Source of the DNA: Actinomycetes bacterium
GTDB taxonomy: Bacteria > Actinomycetota > Thermoleophilia > BMS3ABIN01
Length of the DNA: 64,000 nucleotides
Assembly: GCA_021787475.1 (NCBI GenBank)
Contig: JAJYLW010000002.1
Location: forward strand, 56,249-120,248
Direction of reading: 5' to 3'
The notes beneath the pieces are model-generated. The model made no database searches. It was given only the letters and a program-made list of their open reading frames with translations, and had not been told where the DNA came from. Both the position numbers and the translations under genes were made by a program. Shown here in pieces: positions 40,966-47,888 of this stretch; position 1 is the stretch's first letter; the number at the start of each line of letters is the position of its first letter.

Positions 40966-43593
40966 CTAACTGCTTGCGCCGAGCCTGGCGGCGATATGTT
41001 TGCGGGCAGCTTCGTGAGCAGCCTTGGCCTTGCCCGCATCGGCGCCGCTGCCCCGGGCCAGATTCGCCCTGCCGCCGCCCTTGCCGCCGACGAGAGGAGC
41101 TACTTCCTTGATCAGGTCGCCGGCGTGGACACCGTGGTCAACCGCCTTTTGTGAAATATTTGCGATCATGCTGATGCGGCCGCCGGCAGTTGACGTAACA
41201 AATATGGCGGCTGGCTCAAAGCGCTCCTTGAGCAAGTCGGAAAAAACCGGAAGCTCTGAGACGCTGACCTTATCATCGTTTAGCGTTACTATGTTTACTC
41301 CAGCGATAATTCCTATTGCTTTGACCTTTCCGGCATGCTCCCTCAGTTTTCTTGCCGCCGCCTGCTTTTCCAGCTTGCCAAGCCGCTCTAACTCGGCCCT
41401 AAGCCCGGCCAGCTCCGCCAGTATTGATTCCGGCTCCGTTTTTAGCTCCCGCGCCAGATCTTCGGCCAGCAGCGCGCGCCGGCGGAGGAAATCAATTGCC
41501 GCCCTGGAGGTGATCGCCTCAATCCGGCGCAGGTTGGCTCCGACGCTCGATTCGGAGACAATTCTGAATGCGCCAATCTGGGCGGTGCTGCTGACATGGG
41601 TGCCGCCGCAGAGCTCGCGGCTGAAGTCGCCGATCTCGATTACACGGACAAAATCGCCGTATTTTTCATCGAAAAGGGCAATGGCGCCCATGTCGCGGGC
41701 ATACTCCAGAGTTGTCGTAAAAGCCTTGACGGGGTGGTTCTCAATGATCTTTCGGTTAATCATATCTTCAATCCGTGCCAGTTCCCCATCACTGACGCCT
41801 TCCCCGTAACTAAAATCGAACCGGAGCTTTTCCGGCCCGACCGCCGAGCCTGCCTGCCGCACCTGCTCGCCGAGAAGCTGCCTGAGCGCATTCTGAAGCA
41901 GATGGGTGGCGGAGTGATTGCAGGATGTGGCGTGGCGCCGCACCCTGTTGATCATTGCTTTGGCCCGGGCGCCAGCCTCCAGCCGGCCCTCGGTCACCTC
42001 CGCCAGAACGGCCTGGTCTCCATCCAGCGAGAGCACCTCCAGCACATCCGCTTTGCCGTCATCCGTGTGAATCCAGCCTGTATCGGATATCTGGCCCCCG
42101 GATTCGGCGTAAAAGGGCGATTCCCTCAGCTTAAGCAGCACCCGTCCATCTCCCAGTTCCCGCAAGTCGCCAATGGACGTGTAAAGCTCATGCCTGCCGT
42201 AACCGACAAACTCGGTCTTTACCTTGCCGCTCCGGCCCAGCTCCGCCAGCGCCTCCAGGTCTCTGCCGCCGGTAGTTTTTATTGACGCACGGGCGCGGCG
42301 GCGCTGCTCGTCCATCAGGCGGTCAAACCCTTCTTCGTCCACCTCCAGGCCCTCGTTATGCACTATCTCGCTGGTAAGGTCGTACGGGAATCCGTAGGTA
42401 TCATGCAGGCGGAAGGCTATCTCGCCGTCCATGACCCGGCCGCCCGACTTCTTTGTCGCAACAATGGCTTCGGTGAGCATGTCGTTGCCCTGAGCCAGGG
42501 TGATGCCGAAGCGTTCCTCTTCCTGGCCCGACATGGCGGCGATCATCCTTCCCGCCTGGCCCAGCTCCGGATAATATGGCTGCATCAACTCGACGACCCG
42601 GGAACAGAGTCCGGCGAGGAATGGCGGTTTTGCCGCAAGGGCCGAGGCTGCCTGAATGGCGCGCCGCATAACCCGCCTGAGCACGTAGCCGCGGCCCTCA
42701 TTGTCCGCAAACACGCCGTCAGCCACCAGGAACGCGATCGCCCGGGCATGGTCGGCGAGCACGCGAATAGCGCGGTCGTTTTTCTGCGCTGCTCCATATT
42801 TAACGCCGATCGTCTCGCAGACGTAATCAATCAGCGGCTTGAACAAATCGGTCTCAAAGACACTCAGCTTCCCTTCAATAACCGCAGATATTCGCTCAAG
42901 CCCCATTCCCGTGTCAACATTTTGGCGCGGCAGCGGCGTGAGCGCGCCGGCCTCGTCGCGGTCAAACTGCATGAAAACCAGGTTCCAGAACTCGACAAAC
43001 CTATCACAATCACAACCGGGGGCGCAGTCCGGCCTGCCACAGCCCGCCTCTGCGCCCAGGTCGAAGTAAAGCTCGGTGCAGGGGCCGCAGGGCCCCGTCG
43101 GCCCGGCGGACCAGAAATTGTCGGCGGCGGGCAGGGCGATGATGCGCTCCGGCGGCAATCCTGCCTTCAGCCAGGTTTCCCTGGCTTCATCGTCGGCCGC
43201 CACATTGTCATCGCCCGCGAAAATGCTCACCCAGATTCGTTCTGCGTCCAGCCCGAGCACACCGGTTGAATAGCGCCAGGCAAGGTCAATCGCGCCCTCC
43301 TTGAAATAATCGCCAAAAGAAAAATTGCCCAGCATCTCGAAGAAAGTGAGATGGCGGGCAGTCTTGCCGACATTGTCAATATCGGTGGTGCGGAAGCACT
43401 TCTGGCAGGTAGTCAAACGCGGATGAGGCGGCGGCTGAATCCCCAGGAAAAATGGCTTGAATTGCTGCATACCGGCCGTTGTAAGCAGCACAGATGGATC
43501 ACTTGCCGGAACCAGCGGGGCGCTAGGCCGGTTTTCGTGCCCGTTTTGCGTAAAAAACTCACGAAAGCTGGCGCGGATCTCATGGCTCTTCAA
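40966..43593 (-). CDS. alaS: Alanyl-tRNA synthetase
   Basis: 875 aa. Class II core, editing-domain HxxxH/CxxxH motifs (HSATHLL ... CGGTHV) and a C-terminal DHHA1 domain. Confidence 0.9.
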   Translation of the reverse strand: MKSHEIRASFREFFTQNGHENRPSAPLVPASDPSVLLTTAGMQQFKPFFLGIQPPPHPRLTTCQKCFRTTDIDNVGKTARHLTFFEMLGNFSFGDYFKEGAIDLAWRYSTGVLGLDAERIWVSIFAGDDNVAADDEARETWLKAGLPPERIIALPAADNFWSAGPTGPCGPCTELYFDLGAEAGCGRPDCAPGCDCDRFVEFWNLVFMQFDRDEAGALTPLPRQNVDTGMGLERISAVIEGKLSVFETDLFKPLIDYVCETIGVKYGAAQKNDRAIRVLADHARAIAFLVADGVFADNEGRGYVLRRVMRRAIQAASALAAKPPFLAGLCSRVVELMQPYYPELGQAGRMIAAMSGQEEERFGITLAQGNDMLTEAIVATKKSGGRVMDGEIAFRLHDTYGFPYDLTSEIVHNEGLEVDEEGFDRLMDEQRRRARASIKTTGGRDLEALAELGRSGKVKTEFVGYGRHELYTSIGDLRELGDGRVLLKLRESPFYAESGGQISDTGWIHTDDGKADVLEVLSLDGDQAVLAEVTEGRLEAGARAKAMINRVRRHATSCNHSATHLLQNALRQLLGEQVRQAGSAVGPEKLRFDFSYGEGVSDGELARIEDMINRKIIENHPVKAFTTTLEYARDMGAIALFDEKYGDFVRVIEIGDFSRELCGGTHVSSTAQIGAFRIVSESSVGANLRRIEAITSRAAIDFLRRRALLAEDLARELKTEPESILAELAGLRAELERLGKLEKQAAARKLREHAGKVKAIGIIAGVNIVTLNDDKVSVSELPVFSDLLKERFEPAAIFVTSTAGGRISMIANISQKAVDHGVHAGDLIKEVAPLVGGKGGGRANLARGSGADAGKAKAAHEAARKHIAARLGASS

Positions 43594-43602
43594 CTAGGGC
43601 TG

Positions 43603-44400
43603 TCAACTCTCCTTTCCCTCCCGCAGCTCTATCTCGGCGCGCACCTTGCTTAGTGCCCTCCGGATCAGGCGGGACACGTGCATCTGTGATACGCCTATGT
43701 TCGCTGCTATCTGCGACTGAGTCAAGCCGGCAAAGAATCTCTGGTGTAAAATTCGGCGCTCGCGGCCGTTCAGCCGCGACAGGCCAGGCTCCAGAATAAC
43801 ACGCCGCTCGGCGTCGTCAAACCCTTCCTCATAGTTGCCTACCGACTCCATCGGCGACCGCTCGTCTTCATCATCCGAGCTCAGACGGTGATCCAGTGAC
43901 AAAGAGCAGCGCGAGCGGCCGGCTTCAATCGCCTCCATTACTTCTTCCGGGGAAGCGCCGACCGCGGCCGCCAGCTCGTTGACGGTGGGAGAGCGGTGCT
44001 GGCTGCCGGCAAGAAAGCCGGTGACATGTTCAAGTTTCATGTTGAGTTCGACGAGGCCGCGGGGGACCTTTACCGCCCAGCCCTTGTCCCGAAAATATCG
44101 TTTGATCTCGCCAATGATATTGGGGGTGGCATAAGTCGAAAGCGCGACGCCTCGCCCGGGGTCGAACCTATCAATCGCCTTGATCAGGCCGATGCAGCCC
44201 ACCTGAACCAGGTCTTCCAGTTGCTCTCCCCGCTGGCTATAGCGCCGCGAGACGCCGTAAACCAACGGCAGATAGCGGACGATCAGCTCATCGCGAGCCC
44301 GCGTATCGCCACGAACATGGTAGGCATCGAGCAGCTGCTTTTCCTCAAATCGCTTGGAACCACCTTTGGTTGGCCTGGGTATGCAGACAGTAGCTTCCAT
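43603..44400 (-). CDS. Group-3 sigma-70 family factor (SigB/SigF/FliA-like)
   Basis: Regions 2 to 4, including DLVQVGCIGLIKAIDRFD and a region-4 helix-turn-helix QSQIAANIGVSQMHVSRL. ATG start with GGAGGTG 5 nt upstream. Confidence 0.75.
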   Translation of the reverse strand: MEATVCIPRPTKGGSKRFEEKQLLDAYHVRGDTRARDELIVRYLPLVYGVSRRYSQRGEQLEDLVQVGCIGLIKAIDRFDPGRGVALSTYATPNIIGEIKRYFRDKGWAVKVPRGLVELNMKLEHVTGFLAGSQHRSPTVNELAAAVGASPEEVMEAIEAGRSRCSLSLDHRLSSDDEDERSPMESVGNYEEGFDDAERRVILEPGLSRLNGRERRILHQRFFAGLTQSQIAANIGVSQMHVSRLIRRALSKVRAEIELREGKES

Positions 44401-44645
44401 CCGGGCACCTCCATCGAATCCGCCCCTTGAAAGGGCCTGGGCTTGCATCCCTTAGGTTCTGATGGTAACCCCGTTCCTGCCCGCCGCAGCACGCAGTCAG
44501 GCTGCGGAAAAAGTCACTTTCCTGAATCCAAGCGCAAAATCCATTCGCAAGAAAATGCGAAAGAATTATTGACATACCCTCCCGGGCTTAAGTTAAACAT
44601 GGCCGAATGTGAGTTTTCGCAAATGCTAGTAAGAACAACCAGGGC

Positions 44646-44930
44646 CTAGGCGACAAAATCAGCCGGCTGGGCAGGTTCAGACTGCTCTTCCGGCTCCCCC
44701 AGCTGGCGCTCAATCTCCGCTTCCTTTGCCGCCGCTGCCTGCTTGCCGGCGTCAACGGCAAGCCTGAGTTTCTCCTGCCACCCGGCCCCGGACCCCTTTA
44801 ATTCGGCCGGCAGATTCCCCAGCACTTCGACAATATCCCTGCCCGTCTCCTGGCTCCGCTTTTGGGCGTAAAATACGGCTGCGGCAGCCGCCGCCGCCGA
44901 CAACAGGCCAACCTTTGAAAAAAATCCCAT
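44646..44930 (-). CDS. YtxH-like small membrane-anchored protein
   Basis: N-terminal hydrophobic segment and a KE-rich amphipathic C-terminus. Tandem with the DUF948 gene. Confidence 0.4.
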   Translation of the reverse strand: MGFFSKVGLLSAAAAAAAVFYAQKRSQETGRDIVEVLGNLPAELKGSGAGWQEKLRLAVDAGKQAAAAKEAEIERQLGEPEEQSEPAQPADFVA

Positions 44931-44932
44931 TG

Positions 44933-45319
44933 CTACCGCCTCTCCCGCTGCAGCCAGAGCGAGGTAATCGCACCCGAAACTCCGGCAGATACGCCGGCCA
45001 GCTTTTTCACCGGAGTGGTCACCGCCATCTGCATTGCCTTCGTAGTAGCCTCAACCCTGTCGGTGACGTCAACCAAGGTCCCCATCATGTCATCTGCTTT
45101 CCCCAGCTGGCTGTTTACTTCGTCCATTGTCACCTGCAACCGCGAAAGCAACGGAATTATCTCTTCATCCAGCCGTTTGAGAAAAACGTTCATTCTGGCA
45201 AACGTTCCGCCAACCTTTAACAGCACGTAGGCCAGCGCCAGGGCGGTAATAACAAGAAAAAAGCTAAGCGCCGCTTCGAGAATCGCCGTCCAGTCCATAA
45301 GGATGTTCCTCCCGGTCAT
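44933..45319 (-). CDS. DUF948-family membrane protein
   Basis: N-terminal transmembrane helix followed by a long coiled coil, an architecture typical of DUF948. Confidence 0.5.
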   Translation of the reverse strand: MTGRNILMDWTAILEAALSFFLVITALALAYVLLKVGGTFARMNVFLKRLDEEIIPLLSRLQVTMDEVNSQLGKADDMMGTLVDVTDRVEATTKAMQMAVTTPVKKLAGVSAGVSGAITSLWLQRERR

Positions 45320-45697: not shown

Positions 45698-47188
45698 TTA
45701 CGGATTGGTCGCGGTTATAATTCCACCGGCGGCCAGTGTGCTCCCCCGATAAAACACCGCCGACTGACCCGGGGCAATGCCGTACGCCGGCACTGAAAGG
45801 TCAGCCTCCCATTTCCCGTTGCCGGTCCGCACCTGCGCTTCCACAGCCGGTGAATTGTACCTCATTTGCAGCAGCAGCCGCTCCTTCGCCTCGACGCCGG
45901 CAAATGAATTGATGCCCGAGACTTTGATGCTTCGCACCGCCAGGTGTTTGCGCGGGCCCGCCACGACAAGATTCTTCTCCGGCAAGGTTTTTATTACATA
46001 CATCGCCTCGCGGCGGCCGCCGCCGCCAAGGCCTCGCCTTTGGCCAACCGTATAATTGTGGTAACCGTCATGGACGCCGATCTTGCCGCCGCTTAAATCA
46101 ACAATGTCCCCCGGGCCCGGCGCCTGCCTTTCTCCAAGGCTGGATGTGATGAAACTGCGGTAATCGCCGCCGGGGATGAAGCAAATGTCCTGGCTCTCGG
46201 GACGTCCACCGGCCTGCAGGCGGGCGCTTTGGGCCAGCAAGCGGACTGCCGGCTTTGACATTTCTCCCAAGGGAAAGCTTAACTTCTCCAGAAGCCCGGG
46301 CTTTACCGCCCAGAGCATGTAGGACTGATCCTTGTCACGATCAACGCCGCGCGCCAGCAACGGTGCGCCTTTTCTCCTGACAATGCGGACATAGTGGCCC
46401 GTCGCCACTTTCGCGGCGCCGAGCCTGGCGGCCAGCCTTACCAGGGCGGGAAACCGGAGGCGGCCGTTGCAGCGTACGCACGGATTCGGCGTCATGCCGG
46501 CAAGGTAACTGCGGCAGAAATCGTTGATTACCTCTTCGAAAAAAGGGCGGCTGTAATCGATGGTCAGATGCGGCAAGCCAAGACTGTGGCAGGTTTCGCG
46601 GGCATCGAGGACCGCGCCGGCAGAACAGCAGCTTCTTCCGGCATCGTCTCCATCGTTTCCGCCCGGGTCATCCAGCAGTCTCATTGTCAACCCGATAACA
46701 TCACGGCCTGCCCGCTGCTCAAGCAGGCAGGCAACCGAACTGTCCACGCCGCCGCTCATGGCGACAAGCACGGTTTTCTTCCCGGCGCCAGAAGCGACCG
46801 GAAATTTTTCCCGCCGGAACGCATCTTCGAAAGCGCGGTGCAGCGCTTCGATGGCAAAAGCCGCAGATATATTTATTCCCTTTGATAAAGAGGCCGATTC
46901 CGGCCTGCCGAGCCTCTCCGTTAGAGCCTCAACCGGCAGGGCGGCCGCCTGGCGCCACTCCATACCCTTGGTCATCGTCGTCAGAAGGCTGCCGGCGGCA
47001 ATTGCGGCGCCTGAGCCGGACGCCATAAACGTCGCCTGCTCGACGGCCTGCCTCCTGAACTTAAGAAAGATCCTGAGAGAGGCGCCGCAATTGTCACTGC
47101 CTGCCTGTCCACAGCCATCTGCCCCGGCAAGCCGCCCGGCGTTTTGGGGATTCTGAAAATGATCAAAAAGGAGAGCATCCATGGCCAT
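45698..47188 (-). CDS. mnmA: tRNA-specific 2-thiouridylase MnmA with an N-terminal IscU/NifU-like domain
   Basis: PP-loop SGGVDSS and the catalytic Cys region in the C-terminal 360 aa. The N-terminal roughly 130 aa aligns to IscU (FQNPQNAG...DNCGASLRIFLKF...MASGSGAAIAAGSL) but retains only the first of the three cluster cysteines. Confidence 0.8.
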   Translation of the reverse strand: MAMDALLFDHFQNPQNAGRLAGADGCGQAGSDNCGASLRIFLKFRRQAVEQATFMASGSGAAIAAGSLLTTMTKGMEWRQAAALPVEALTERLGRPESASLSKGINISAAFAIEALHRAFEDAFRREKFPVASGAGKKTVLVAMSGGVDSSVACLLEQRAGRDVIGLTMRLLDDPGGNDGDDAGRSCCSAGAVLDARETCHSLGLPHLTIDYSRPFFEEVINDFCRSYLAGMTPNPCVRCNGRLRFPALVRLAARLGAAKVATGHYVRIVRRKGAPLLARGVDRDKDQSYMLWAVKPGLLEKLSFPLGEMSKPAVRLLAQSARLQAGGRPESQDICFIPGGDYRSFITSSLGERQAPGPGDIVDLSGGKIGVHDGYHNYTVGQRRGLGGGGRREAMYVIKTLPEKNLVVAGPRKHLAVRSIKVSGINSFAGVEAKERLLLQMRYNSPAVEAQVRTGNGKWEADLSVPAYGIAPGQSAVFYRGSTLAAGGIITATNP

Positions 47189-47288
47189 CGATACATTTTA
47201 CTGATCATACAATTTATTCAGGAAACTGCTCGGGGTTTGCCTAGTTCTGCCTAAGTCCGGCCGGCGATCATCCATTGAAGAAACTCAT

Positions 47289-47348: not shown

Positions 47349-47888
47349 CTAGCCCAGAATCTCGGAAATCCCCTGCTGTAATGACTTGTCATCCACGTAA
47401 CCGGTCCATGCCCGTTGAACCCTGGCCTGTTTGTTGATCATGATCACGCTGGGCGTCGCATTAACCTTAAGCAGGGTCATCAAATCACCATATTTGTTGC
47501 CATCGGAGAAGAAGTAATCATAAAAATCGACCTGGCCGCGGTAGCGGCTCTCCAGCGTGTTCAGCGACTGGCGCACCTGGTCGTCATCAGCGGAGCCGAT
47601 CATGTAAAAGAGGACAACCACCGGCCGGCGGCTGCTCAACGATGCGCGGAAGTCCTGGGGAGACTGATCGGTAGGAATGACAAGCTGGCCAATCATTTGC
47701 TCCGGCTCGGCCGAAGCGCTGCTGCCGGCGGCCCGCGCCGTTGTTGACGCGGTTCCCGGGGTGGCCGAGACAGTCCTGGGGGTGGTAGTTGGCGGAGCCG
47801 CCGGCTGGCTGCCCCCGCAAGCGACAAATAAAAAAGCCGTCAGCGCCAAAAGAAGCACTGAGGCTGTAATCTTGAGTAGCTTGGTCAT
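47349..47888 (-). CDS. Thioredoxin-fold lipoprotein (no CxxC motif)
   Basis: Lipobox LFVAC after a signal peptide. The C-terminal domain resembles a thioredoxin-like fold but lacks the active-site cysteines. Confidence 0.5.
   Translation of the reverse strand: MTKLLKITASVLLLALTAFLFVACGGSQPAAPPTTTPRTVSATPGTASTTARAAGSSASAEPEQMIGQLVIPTDQSPQDFRASLSSRRPVVVLFYMIGSADDDQVRQSLNTLESRYRGQVDFYDYFFSDGNKYGDLMTLLKVNATPSVIMINKQARVQRAWTGYVDDKSLQQGISEILG

Follow-up and report, generated by a model that had tools for sequence, protein, structure and literature searches.

Introduction

The tRNA thiolase MnmA forms s2U34, and both the route by which sulfur reaches this enzyme and its need for an iron-sulfur (Fe-S) cluster are still debated (PMC11784392, PMC8053098, PMC7025502). 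C-type MnmA enzymes, which have been reported for most Actinobacteria, are defined by a CC-CxxC-C cysteine motif (Shigi et al. 2020, PMC7025502). In the Thermus thermophilus enzyme, TtMnmA, the cysteines of the CxxC-C part hold a [4Fe-4S] cluster with one open iron, and this cluster is required for s2U34 formation, while the role of the CC pair is unexplained; TtMnmA takes its sulfur straight from the cysteine desulfurases IscS or SufS in vitro (PMC7025502). The current work concerns a gene for an enzyme of this kind located in a stretch of 64,000 nucleotides (here referred to as the window) of contig JAJYLW010000002.1 from an Actinomycetes bacterium, the product of which begins with a domain resembling IscU/NifU, the scaffold protein of Fe-S cluster assembly.

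Proteins of the IscU fold are known in more than one role. In SufU, Cys41, Asp43, Cys66 and Cys128 form a zinc site (PMC8918507), and the first of these cysteines is the persulfide acceptor (PMC11021402, PMC8918507). In Escherichia coli IscU, Cys37 is more exposed than any other cysteine and lies closest to the IscS loop and to IscS Cys328, and mutation of K103 breaks IscS binding (PMC2854127). A full-text literature search retrieved no description of a fusion between NifU/IscU and MnmA. A previous reading of the window made from its letters (here named the sequence-only reading) had interpreted the N-terminal part of this MnmA as a degenerate IscU-like module with a single cysteine, possibly employed in sulfur delivery, and the analysis described below follows up on that interpretation.

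An IscU-like domain with one ligand cysteine precedes a complete C-type MnmA

The open reading frame (ORF) at 45698..47188 on the minus strand is open across 496 amino acids (aa) plus the stop codon, starting from an ATG at 47188, and was assigned as a whole to a NifU_N-like domain joined to a C-type MnmA on the basis of the ORF list, Pfam, NCBIfam and AlphaFold. Residues 1-135 (46784..47188, minus strand), which include a conserved 'FP' linker at positions 129-130, constitute the degenerate IscU/NifU-like domain, as delimited by Pfam, NCBIfam, a sequence match in the PDB, Foldseek and the ratio of nonsynonymous to synonymous substitution rates (dN/dS). Residues 136-496 (45701..46783, minus strand) constitute the MnmA proper, composed of the PP-loop catalytic domain, a PRC-barrel domain and a C-terminal barrel (Pfam, NF001138 and Foldseek).

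As had been supposed in the sequence-only reading, the N-terminal segment is truly homologous to NifU_N/IscU. Pfam NifU_N (PF01592) matches residues 7-99 with an E-value of 4.5e-17 and 62.8 bits in the full-length protein (cutoff 22) and with an E-value of 2.4e-18 in the isolated N-terminus, scores being 62.8-66.9 bits across both runs. Among solved structures, residues 1-135 match best the Archaeoglobus fulgidus IscU (4eb5_C, E-value 1.2e-18), followed by the IscU proteins of Methanothrix and Aquifex, and Foldseek superimposes the predicted domain on 4eb5_C with a template-modelling score (TMt) of 0.78 and a root-mean-square deviation of 1.8 Å, in agreement with an IscU fold. Among the NCBIfam models, TIGR03419 (NifU_clost) gave 71.5-75.9 bits (cutoff 187.9), TIGR01999 gave 44-48 bits (cutoff 192.4) and TIGR01994 (SufU) gave 31-35.3 bits (cutoff 92.5), each thus under its cutoff. 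By these scores the domain is nearest to the clostridial/archaeal NifU/IscU type, with SufU a far weaker match. Membership of the SufU family itself was considered and rejected, only the equivalent of Cys41 being present and TIGR01994 scoring 31.5-35.3 bits versus 92.5.

Ligand correspondences were derived from a HMMER alignment to 4eb5_C and from a MAFFT alignment of the family, in which the IscU motifs 'VCGD', 'FGCAA' and 'HCS' pair with 'NC34-G-A36', 'SG-S59-GA' and 'I107-S108-A109', respectively. The first ligand cysteine is kept as Cys34 (47087..47089, minus strand; equivalent to E. coli IscU C37, SufU C41 and ISCU2 C69) and is the only one of the five ligands to be so. The ligand Asp (IscU D39) is replaced by Ala36 (47081..47083, minus strand), this position being A or V in the clade of one-cysteine proteins described below; the second ligand Cys (IscU C63) is replaced by Ser59 (47012..47014, minus strand); and the His-Cys pair (IscU H105-C106) is replaced by Ile107-Ser108 (46865..46870, minus strand), where the register of the alignment to 4eb5_C is anchored by the conserved ALH helix. 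Both alignments agree with the motif changes that had been read by eye, namely GCGS becoming SGSG and HCS lying within INIS with two ligand cysteines replaced, and add to these the loss of the Asp and His ligands. The description of the module as possessing a single cysteine holds with regard to the ligand positions, where Cys34 stands alone, and fails for the domain as a whole, which also contains Cys26 (47111..47113, minus strand). This second cysteine is placed off the ligand positions and is not conserved, being Ser in P0002 (68% identical to the query) and variable in the family.

Because four of the five ligand positions are gone, the N-terminal domain is predicted to be incapable of holding a normal [2Fe-2S] cluster or a SufU-type zinc ion, and the earlier contention that a one-cysteine module cannot build a normal cluster is thereby upheld. 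When assessed as a functional IscU/NifU scaffold, the domain failed with respect to its ligand set, the equivalog cutoffs and an adjoining desulfurase gene. Single-cysteine persulfide carriers (TusA, SufE, rhodanese) are recognized by one conserved, exposed cysteine that a cysteine desulfurase persulfidates; of these traits, the alignments show conservation for Cys34.

The remainder of the protein is covered by the three MnmA domains of Pfam (PF03054, PF20259 and PF20258; residues 139-491) and scores above the cutoffs of the NCBIfam MnmA equivalog NF001138 (349.2 bits, cutoff 284) and of TIGR00420 (285.4 bits, cutoff 236.95), while Foldseek aligns residues 136-496 with 2hma and 2det_A at a TMt of 0.90-0.91. 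The ATP-binding PP-loop motif SGGVDS (aa 145-150; 46739..46756, minus strand) falls in invariant columns of one of our two alignments (A1). The CC motif of C-type enzymes is represented by C187-C188 (46625..46630, minus strand), which is invariant in A1 and in 128/128 fused proteins. The CxxC motif, C237-V-R-C240 (46469..46480, minus strand), contributes two of the three [4Fe-4S] ligands that homology to TtMnmA predicts (PMC7025502); 'NPCxxCN' occurs in 128/128 fused proteins, and C237 and C240 are invariant in A1. Cys336, within QDICF (46181..46183, minus strand), would be the third [4Fe-4S] ligand or a catalytic cysteine and is likewise invariant in A1 and in 128/128. All fused proteins examined (128/128) therefore carry the C-type CC-CxxC-C pattern, and by its motifs the enzyme of the window is a bona fide and complete C-type MnmA, presumed to depend on a [4Fe-4S] cluster.

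An AlphaFold2 model of the fusion, built from a 55-sequence alignment, reached a mean per-residue confidence (pLDDT) of 94 and a predicted template-modelling score (pTM) of 0.92. It contains no disordered linker, pLDDT being 95-98 over residues 121-140, and its only uncertain region is an acidic loop at residues 171-190. Because the model is compact (pTM 0.92) and its linker is confidently placed, the two modules are predicted to be rigidly joined and in fixed contact. A Foldseek search retrieved no solved structure spanning both parts.

Distribution and conservation of the fusion

Judging from the database sequences, the fusion constitutes a family of more than 125 proteins that is confined to Rubrobacteria, Thermoleophilia and related metagenome-assembled genomes (MAGs). 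Both domains are present in almost all of the 120 best relatives from the database, and for 116 of these the ligand residues were typed by alignment. The one-cysteine type accounts for 57 of the 116, all of which are devoid of the Asp; they derive mostly from MAGs labelled Thermoleophilia or Actinobacteria, are 46-68% identical to the query and include the protein of the window. A further 56, among them proteins of Rubrobacter xylanophilus, Rubrobacter marinus and Rubrobacteraceae, display Cys-Asp-Cys-His with the third Cys changed to Ala or Gly. The three-cysteine type is represented by two metagenomic proteins (P0100 and P0107), both of which have Ala for His, and a single truncated sequence could not be typed. 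The intermediate states (Cys-Asp-Cys-His and three-Cys) might, to judge from these residues, still bind a metal or a cluster. Public databases contain the fusion, that of cultured Rubrobacter included, with plain MnmA as its label, and the one-cysteine state is an extreme variant of it which to date has been seen in uncultured Thermoleophilia-like Actinomycetota alone.

A scan of GTDB species genomes, which is biased by the MnmA PP-loop pattern employed and indicates where fusions and clusters exist rather than how frequent they are, revealed among the matches listed additional fusions in Rubrobacter, Thermoleophilaceae, Solirubrobacterales/Solirubrobacteraceae and 'Actinomycetota' MAGs. The fusions listed carry Cys-Asp-Cys at the first three positions in all cases and His-Ala at the last two in nearly all, while the matches listed from other phyla are free NifU genes. 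The fusions of Rubrobacter and Thermoleophilales/Solirubrobacterales at L005:4828-7470, L010 and L016-L039 possess Cys-Asp-Cys-His and are without the third Cys alone. Apparent fusions in Syntrophaceae, Latescibacterota and the Candidate Phyla Radiation (CPR) were discarded, these being separate adjoining genes.

Cys34 is invariant in all sets analyzed, i.e. in 55/55 sequences of alignment A1, 15/15 of alignment A2, 115/115 untruncated fused proteins and 13/13 GTDB loci, and G27, G30, G35 and G58 are likewise invariant across A1 and A2, the members of which are 33-70% identical to the query. Within the one-cysteine clade (n=57), where the N-terminal region shows a mean pairwise identity of 45% and a minimum of 30%, positions conserved at 90% or above comprise G25, G27, A29, G30, C34 and G35 of the loop around the first ligand cysteine (C1 loop), A56 and G58 of the loop around the second (C2 loop), A64 and S67 at the start of the helix that follows, W78, the linker residue P130, and F111, A112, A115, L116, H117, A119, E121 and D122 of the helix that follows the lost third cysteine (C3). 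This distribution indicates that functional constraint is concentrated at the former active site, that is, on the C1 loop, the C2 loop and the helices beside them, the first Cys with its glycine-rich loop and the pocket around it having stayed under strong purifying selection. The lost ligand positions drift, with S, A, T, P or K at C2 and A, S or G at C3. In two members of this clade (P0057 and P0059) Pfam NifU_N is no longer detected; the CGA cysteine loop and the ALH helix are retained in these proteins as well as in P0056.

When the N-terminal domain was searched against 1.8 billion cluster representatives, 2215 were IscU-like, and few fused representatives were obtained. The pattern of a Cys without the Asp and without the second Cys was found, among these best 150 of the 2215 representatives, only in proteins fused to a PP-loop (MnmA) domain, the columns of the third Cys being unreliable in this broad alignment.

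Translation start of the fused gene

The public gene model of the window protein (P0001, 442 aa) begins at M55 (codon 47024-47026), in the middle of the NifU_N domain, and the deposited models of two relatives, P0003 and P0058, begin at the same internal Met, which halves that domain. In the case of P0003 the conserved N-terminus is present in frame upstream, and at L048:2845-3000 it is found in an open frame upstream of the called start, with a GTG start at 2845. In the window, an in-frame TAA is positioned 12 nt 5' of the ATG at 47188, and M1 and M3 are the sole starts earlier than M55. Residues 1-54 are 65% identical to those of the orthologue in L006 with a dN/dS of 0.18, the corresponding values being 0.21 for residues 55-135, 0.20 for the whole of aa 1-135 and 0.18 for the MnmA part. 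More than 100 homologues have been called at full length in the database, and the AlphaFold model displays a pLDDT of 93-98 over residues 11-60. The purifying selection on residues 1-54 matches that on MnmA (dN/dS 0.18), from which we conclude that the upstream start is the one used, and the fused domain and MnmA are made as one polypeptide; use of the upstream ATG, on which the sequence-only reading depended, is accordingly backed by selection, by the upstream stop, by the full-length homologues and by the model.

The sequence upstream of M1 contains no Shine-Dalgarno motif. A TAAAAT hexamer at 47195..47200 (minus strand), which corresponds to positions -12..-7 relative to the ATG, is by inference a candidate -10 box for a leaderless transcript; the geometry of this hexamer and the missing Shine-Dalgarno motif would fit a leaderless mRNA, a candidate arrangement for which the hexamer is the sole basis. 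A scan with the sigma-70 consensus identified no promoter site upstream of the fused gene and did not flag the hexamer. In L003, a TATCAT is located at a similar distance from the start. An in-frame GTG at codon 140 (46769-46771), five codons before the PP-loop, is preceded by GGGAAGAAAACC and follows a purine-rich GGGAAG, and it is possible that an internal start at this codon could add bare MnmA beside the full-length protein.

Gene neighbourhood and origin of the fusion

In R. xylanophilus, the gene for a class-I, NifS-type desulfurase ends 4 nt before the fused gene; the best model for its product is TIGR03402 NifS, with 415 bits (equivalog cutoff 530.75, which is not reached). Collinear clusters of separate nifS, nifU and mnmA genes were identified in seven MAGs (L011, L013, L014, L015, L017, L021 and L023), a sample biased by the search patterns, which belong to Desulfuromonadota (Trichloromonas), Ignavibacteria, Syntrophaceae, a deltaproteobacterium, Saganbacteria, Latescibacterota and CPR Staskawiczbacteria. 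In L014, the end of nifU coincides with the beginning of mnmA. A common downstream order of DUF948, small ORFs, a sigma factor and alaS extends from Rubrobacter to the window, where this block of genes (minus strand, delimited by synteny) comprises the DUF948 protein, a 94-aa ORF, a group-3-like sigma factor and alaS (43603-45319 and 40966-43593). Taken together, the presence of nifS next to the Rubrobacter fusion, the nifS-nifU-mnmA clusters and this synteny indicate that the fusion arose from a widespread nifS-nifU-mnmA cluster and is thus a "Rosetta-stone" fusion of neighbouring genes. The distribution of ligand states similarly indicates that the scaffold ligands were lost stepwise, the third Cys being lost first, and the Asp, the second Cys and the His subsequently in the one-cysteine clade.

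Upstream of the fusion, the order lactamase_B, hisS, aspS and a small lipoprotein gene is common to the window, L003, L006, L007 and L008, and differs in Rubrobacter. The predicted lipoprotein of the window (179 aa; 47349-47888, minus strand) may adopt a thioredoxin-like fold according to weak matches (Thioredoxin_2, E-value 1.3e-4, below cutoff; slr1796-like NF038096, E-value 3e-3), and its sole cysteine is the lipobox Cys24. In all one-cysteine loci, and likewise in L007, L020, L025 and L028, the lipoprotein gene is the immediate upstream neighbour of the fused mnmA, a position taken by nifS in Rubrobacter. A desulfurase gene no longer adjoins the fusion in the Thermoleophilia-like lineages examined, whatever their ligand state. 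A database search with the Rubrobacter NifS retrieved proteins of the Rubrobacter-like kind alone (at least 70% identity) and is uninformative with regard to the Thermoleophilia-like genomes. A promoter-like site is located at 45676-45647 (minus strand), right behind the mnmA stop codon.

Possible roles of the fused domain

Tentatively, and with somewhat less than even confidence, we propose that the N-terminal domain acts as a metal-free persulfide acceptor and/or as a desulfurase-docking domain which feeds MnmA. According to this proposal, the domain would no longer build clusters and would instead work as a sulfur adaptor: its retained IscU-type surface would recruit a cysteine desulfurase, and Cys34 would either accept a persulfide from the mobile Cys of the desulfurase or position that Cys. 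Sulfur would then be passed on in cis to the free iron of the three-Cys [4Fe-4S] cluster in the MnmA active site, where it would replace the adenylated O2 of U34 in tRNA-Glu, tRNA-Gln and tRNA-Lys. Purifying selection on the domain equal to that on MnmA, and the placement of its one invariant cysteine in a conserved pocket, speak in favour of a sulfur adaptor, and the equivalent of Cys34 is the acceptor in SufU and the exposed cysteine closest to IscS Cys328 in E. coli IscU (PMC2854127). The persulfide or docking role put forward in the sequence-only reading is also consistent with the invariance of Cys34 in every fused protein examined, with the NifS-type gene adjoining the Rubrobacter fusion, with the predicted fixed contact of the two modules and with the one-cysteine pattern having been seen, among the best 150 of the 2215 IscU-like representatives, in MnmA-fused proteins only. 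An aid to docking is chemically plausible because C-type MnmA accepts sulfur directly from IscS/SufS in vitro (PMC7025502). The more specific version, in which the IscU fold has turned into a metal-free, single-cysteine persulfide carrier in cis with a [4Fe-4S] MnmA, such that one protein recruits the desulfurase and thiolates tRNA, is conceivable and in our estimation doubtful. If true, it would establish a sulfur-carrier domain of a new kind that differs from TusA, SufE, rhodanese and zinc-SufU, and the series from three Cys through Cys-Asp-Cys-His to one Cys would record the conversion of a scaffold into a relay.

Several observations weigh against sulfur delivery by this domain. In the human/mitochondrial ISC system the acceptor is the third Cys, which was lost first in the fusion family, and transfer depends on iron bound by the Asp, the second Cys and the third Cys, all of which are lost here (PMC11021402); transfer in SufU needs a zinc site and a ligand swap, which would be impossible here (PMC8918507). 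The loop equivalent to that of IscU K103 is variable in length and sequence in the one-cysteine clade, and TtMnmA requires no carrier in vitro (PMC7025502). The N-terminal DHxxNPRN motif is lost as well in two one-cysteine members (P0056 and P0057). No desulfurase was detected in the 64-kb window or in the one-cysteine loci by a regular-expression scan for pyridoxal phosphate (PLP)/active-site motifs or by tblastn with the Rubrobacter NifS, and none is encoded within 6-10 kb of the fused gene in any one-cysteine or Thermoleophilales/Solirubrobacterales locus.

The domain may alternatively be a structural relic, i.e. a core for folding or stability, or a surface for contact with tRNA or between subunits of a dimer, in which Cys34 takes part in no sulfur chemistry. 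Such an account agrees with the compact model and its high-confidence interface (pTM 0.92), with the loss of four of the five ligands, with the low complexity and variable length of the loop at the former C3 site, and with the fact that a desulfurase gene does not adjoin the fusion in Thermoleophilia-like loci. Moreover, the C-type MnmAs of most Actinobacteria are not known to carry such an N-terminal domain, which would therefore be dispensable for the chemistry. We nevertheless regard a relic as unlikely, since it predicts neither the absolute invariance of one cysteine while the other ligand positions drift freely, nor that the most conserved patch should coincide with the former active-site loops, and since dN/dS is the same for the domain and for the catalytic part. 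The domain might also serve the [4Fe-4S] cluster of MnmA rather than the sulfur to be transferred, and the link to Fe-S dependence which the sequence-only reading offered as an alternative is relevant here, the MnmA part being C-type. Cys34 could act as a cap or as a fourth ligand that can be removed, shielding an oxygen-labile three-Cys cluster; it could contribute to an inter-domain site, for example with C187/C188, at which a cluster is received or repaired; or, in the two-Cys and three-Cys relatives, the domain might function as a genuine scaffold in cis. All 128 of 128 fused proteins are C-type (CC-CxxC-C), and the cluster of such enzymes sits on three Cys with an open iron beside a CC pair of unexplained role (PMC7025502). 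Relatives with Cys-Asp-Cys-His (Rubrobacter and Solirubrobacterales) or with three Cys (P0100 and P0107) could still bind a metal. Protection of a cluster would pay off in these organisms, cultured Rubrobacter and Thermoleophilia being aerobes. Against a role of this kind, a lone cysteine cannot assemble a cluster, and ligand loss went on in the one-cysteine clade while constraint was kept, from which it may be argued that the full site was never required for the function that is conserved; we consider it improbable, and more so than a relic.

A further explanation is that the fusion is an artefact, caused by an assembly or frameshift join, or apparent only because MnmA alone is translated from M55, from the GTG at codon 140 or from M144. 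The deposited annotation starting at M55, the missing Shine-Dalgarno motif before M1 and the GGGAAG before GTG codon 140, which makes an additional internal start possible, are compatible with this explanation. It is, however, contradicted by the continuous architecture of more than 125 proteins from independent assemblies, including the complete genomes of R. xylanophilus and R. marinus, by the purifying selection on residues 1-54, by a start at M55 falling in the middle of a predicted beta-sheet of the domain, and by P0003, which has the same internal start and keeps the conserved N-terminus in frame upstream. Based on the shared architecture, the selection and the upstream frame an artefact was rejected, and we deem it very improbable.

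The covalent link between an IscU-type domain and a C-type MnmA, conserved in two actinobacterial classes, amounts to "Rosetta-stone" evidence of joint action. The family also represents a natural mutant series (three Cys, two Cys with Asp/His, one Cys) which could be used to tell apart the roles of the IscU fold as a scaffold, as a metal binder and as a persulfide carrier. Furthermore, it suggests how most Actinobacteria may have reached a bare iscS-mnmA arrangement, NifU function having been lost stepwise from nifS-nifU-mnmA. The domain has been hidden by gene models of the window gene and of at least two relatives that start at an internal Met.

Comparison with known systems

Residues 136-496 share the PP-loop, the CC-CxxC-C motif and the three-domain layout with TtMnmA (PMC7025502), and by homology the same s2U34 reaction and [4Fe-4S] dependence would be expected. 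The protein of the window differs in this respect from TtMnmA and the remaining MnmAs that have been described, which are without an IscU-like domain at the N-terminus and obtain sulfur either straight from IscS/SufS, as observed for TtMnmA in vitro, or via the Tus relay, as in E. coli. With IscU/NifU proteins (A. fulgidus 4eb5, Methanothrix 7c8m and TIGR03419) the N-terminal domain shares the fold, the C1 loop GxxGxxxCG, the C-terminal ALH helix and the ancestral gene position between nifS and mnmA. It differs from these in keeping one of five ligands, in scoring 76 versus 188 bits and in being fused rather than free; because of the ligands lost, the score far below the equivalog cutoff and the fusion, the domain cannot be a cluster assembly scaffold.

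SufU provides a precedent for the IscU fold acting as a persulfide carrier and not as a scaffold, with its acceptor Cys41 at the position of Cys34 (PMC11021402, PMC8918507). It differs in that three Cys and an Asp bind zinc, its mechanism needing this zinc site and SufS His342, whereas the domain of the window is without such a site; moreover, SufU is a free protein that serves SufBCD and not MnmA. A similar functional logic may be recognized by analogy in the C-terminal rhodanese domain of ThiI, in the TusA-TusBCD-TusE relay to E. coli MnmA and in YrvO-MnmA of Bacillus subtilis, in which a PP-loop tRNA thiolase is fed either by a persulfide carrier with a single cysteine or by a desulfurase partner of its own, the carrier being a fused domain in ThiI (PMC13066941 and established knowledge). 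None of these has sequence or fold kinship with the IscU-like domain, the likeness being one of analogy only.

The closest counterparts are the fusions of Rubrobacter and of Thermoleophilales/Solirubrobacterales (for example R. xylanophilus P0067 and R. marinus P0099), which are annotated just as MnmA and which share with the window protein its architecture, the invariant first Cys and the downstream synteny, the Thermoleophilia-like loci examined also sharing the upstream hisS, aspS and lipoprotein genes. They differ from it in keeping Cys-Asp-Cys-His, being without the third Cys alone, and Rubrobacter furthermore retains nifS directly upstream of the fused gene.

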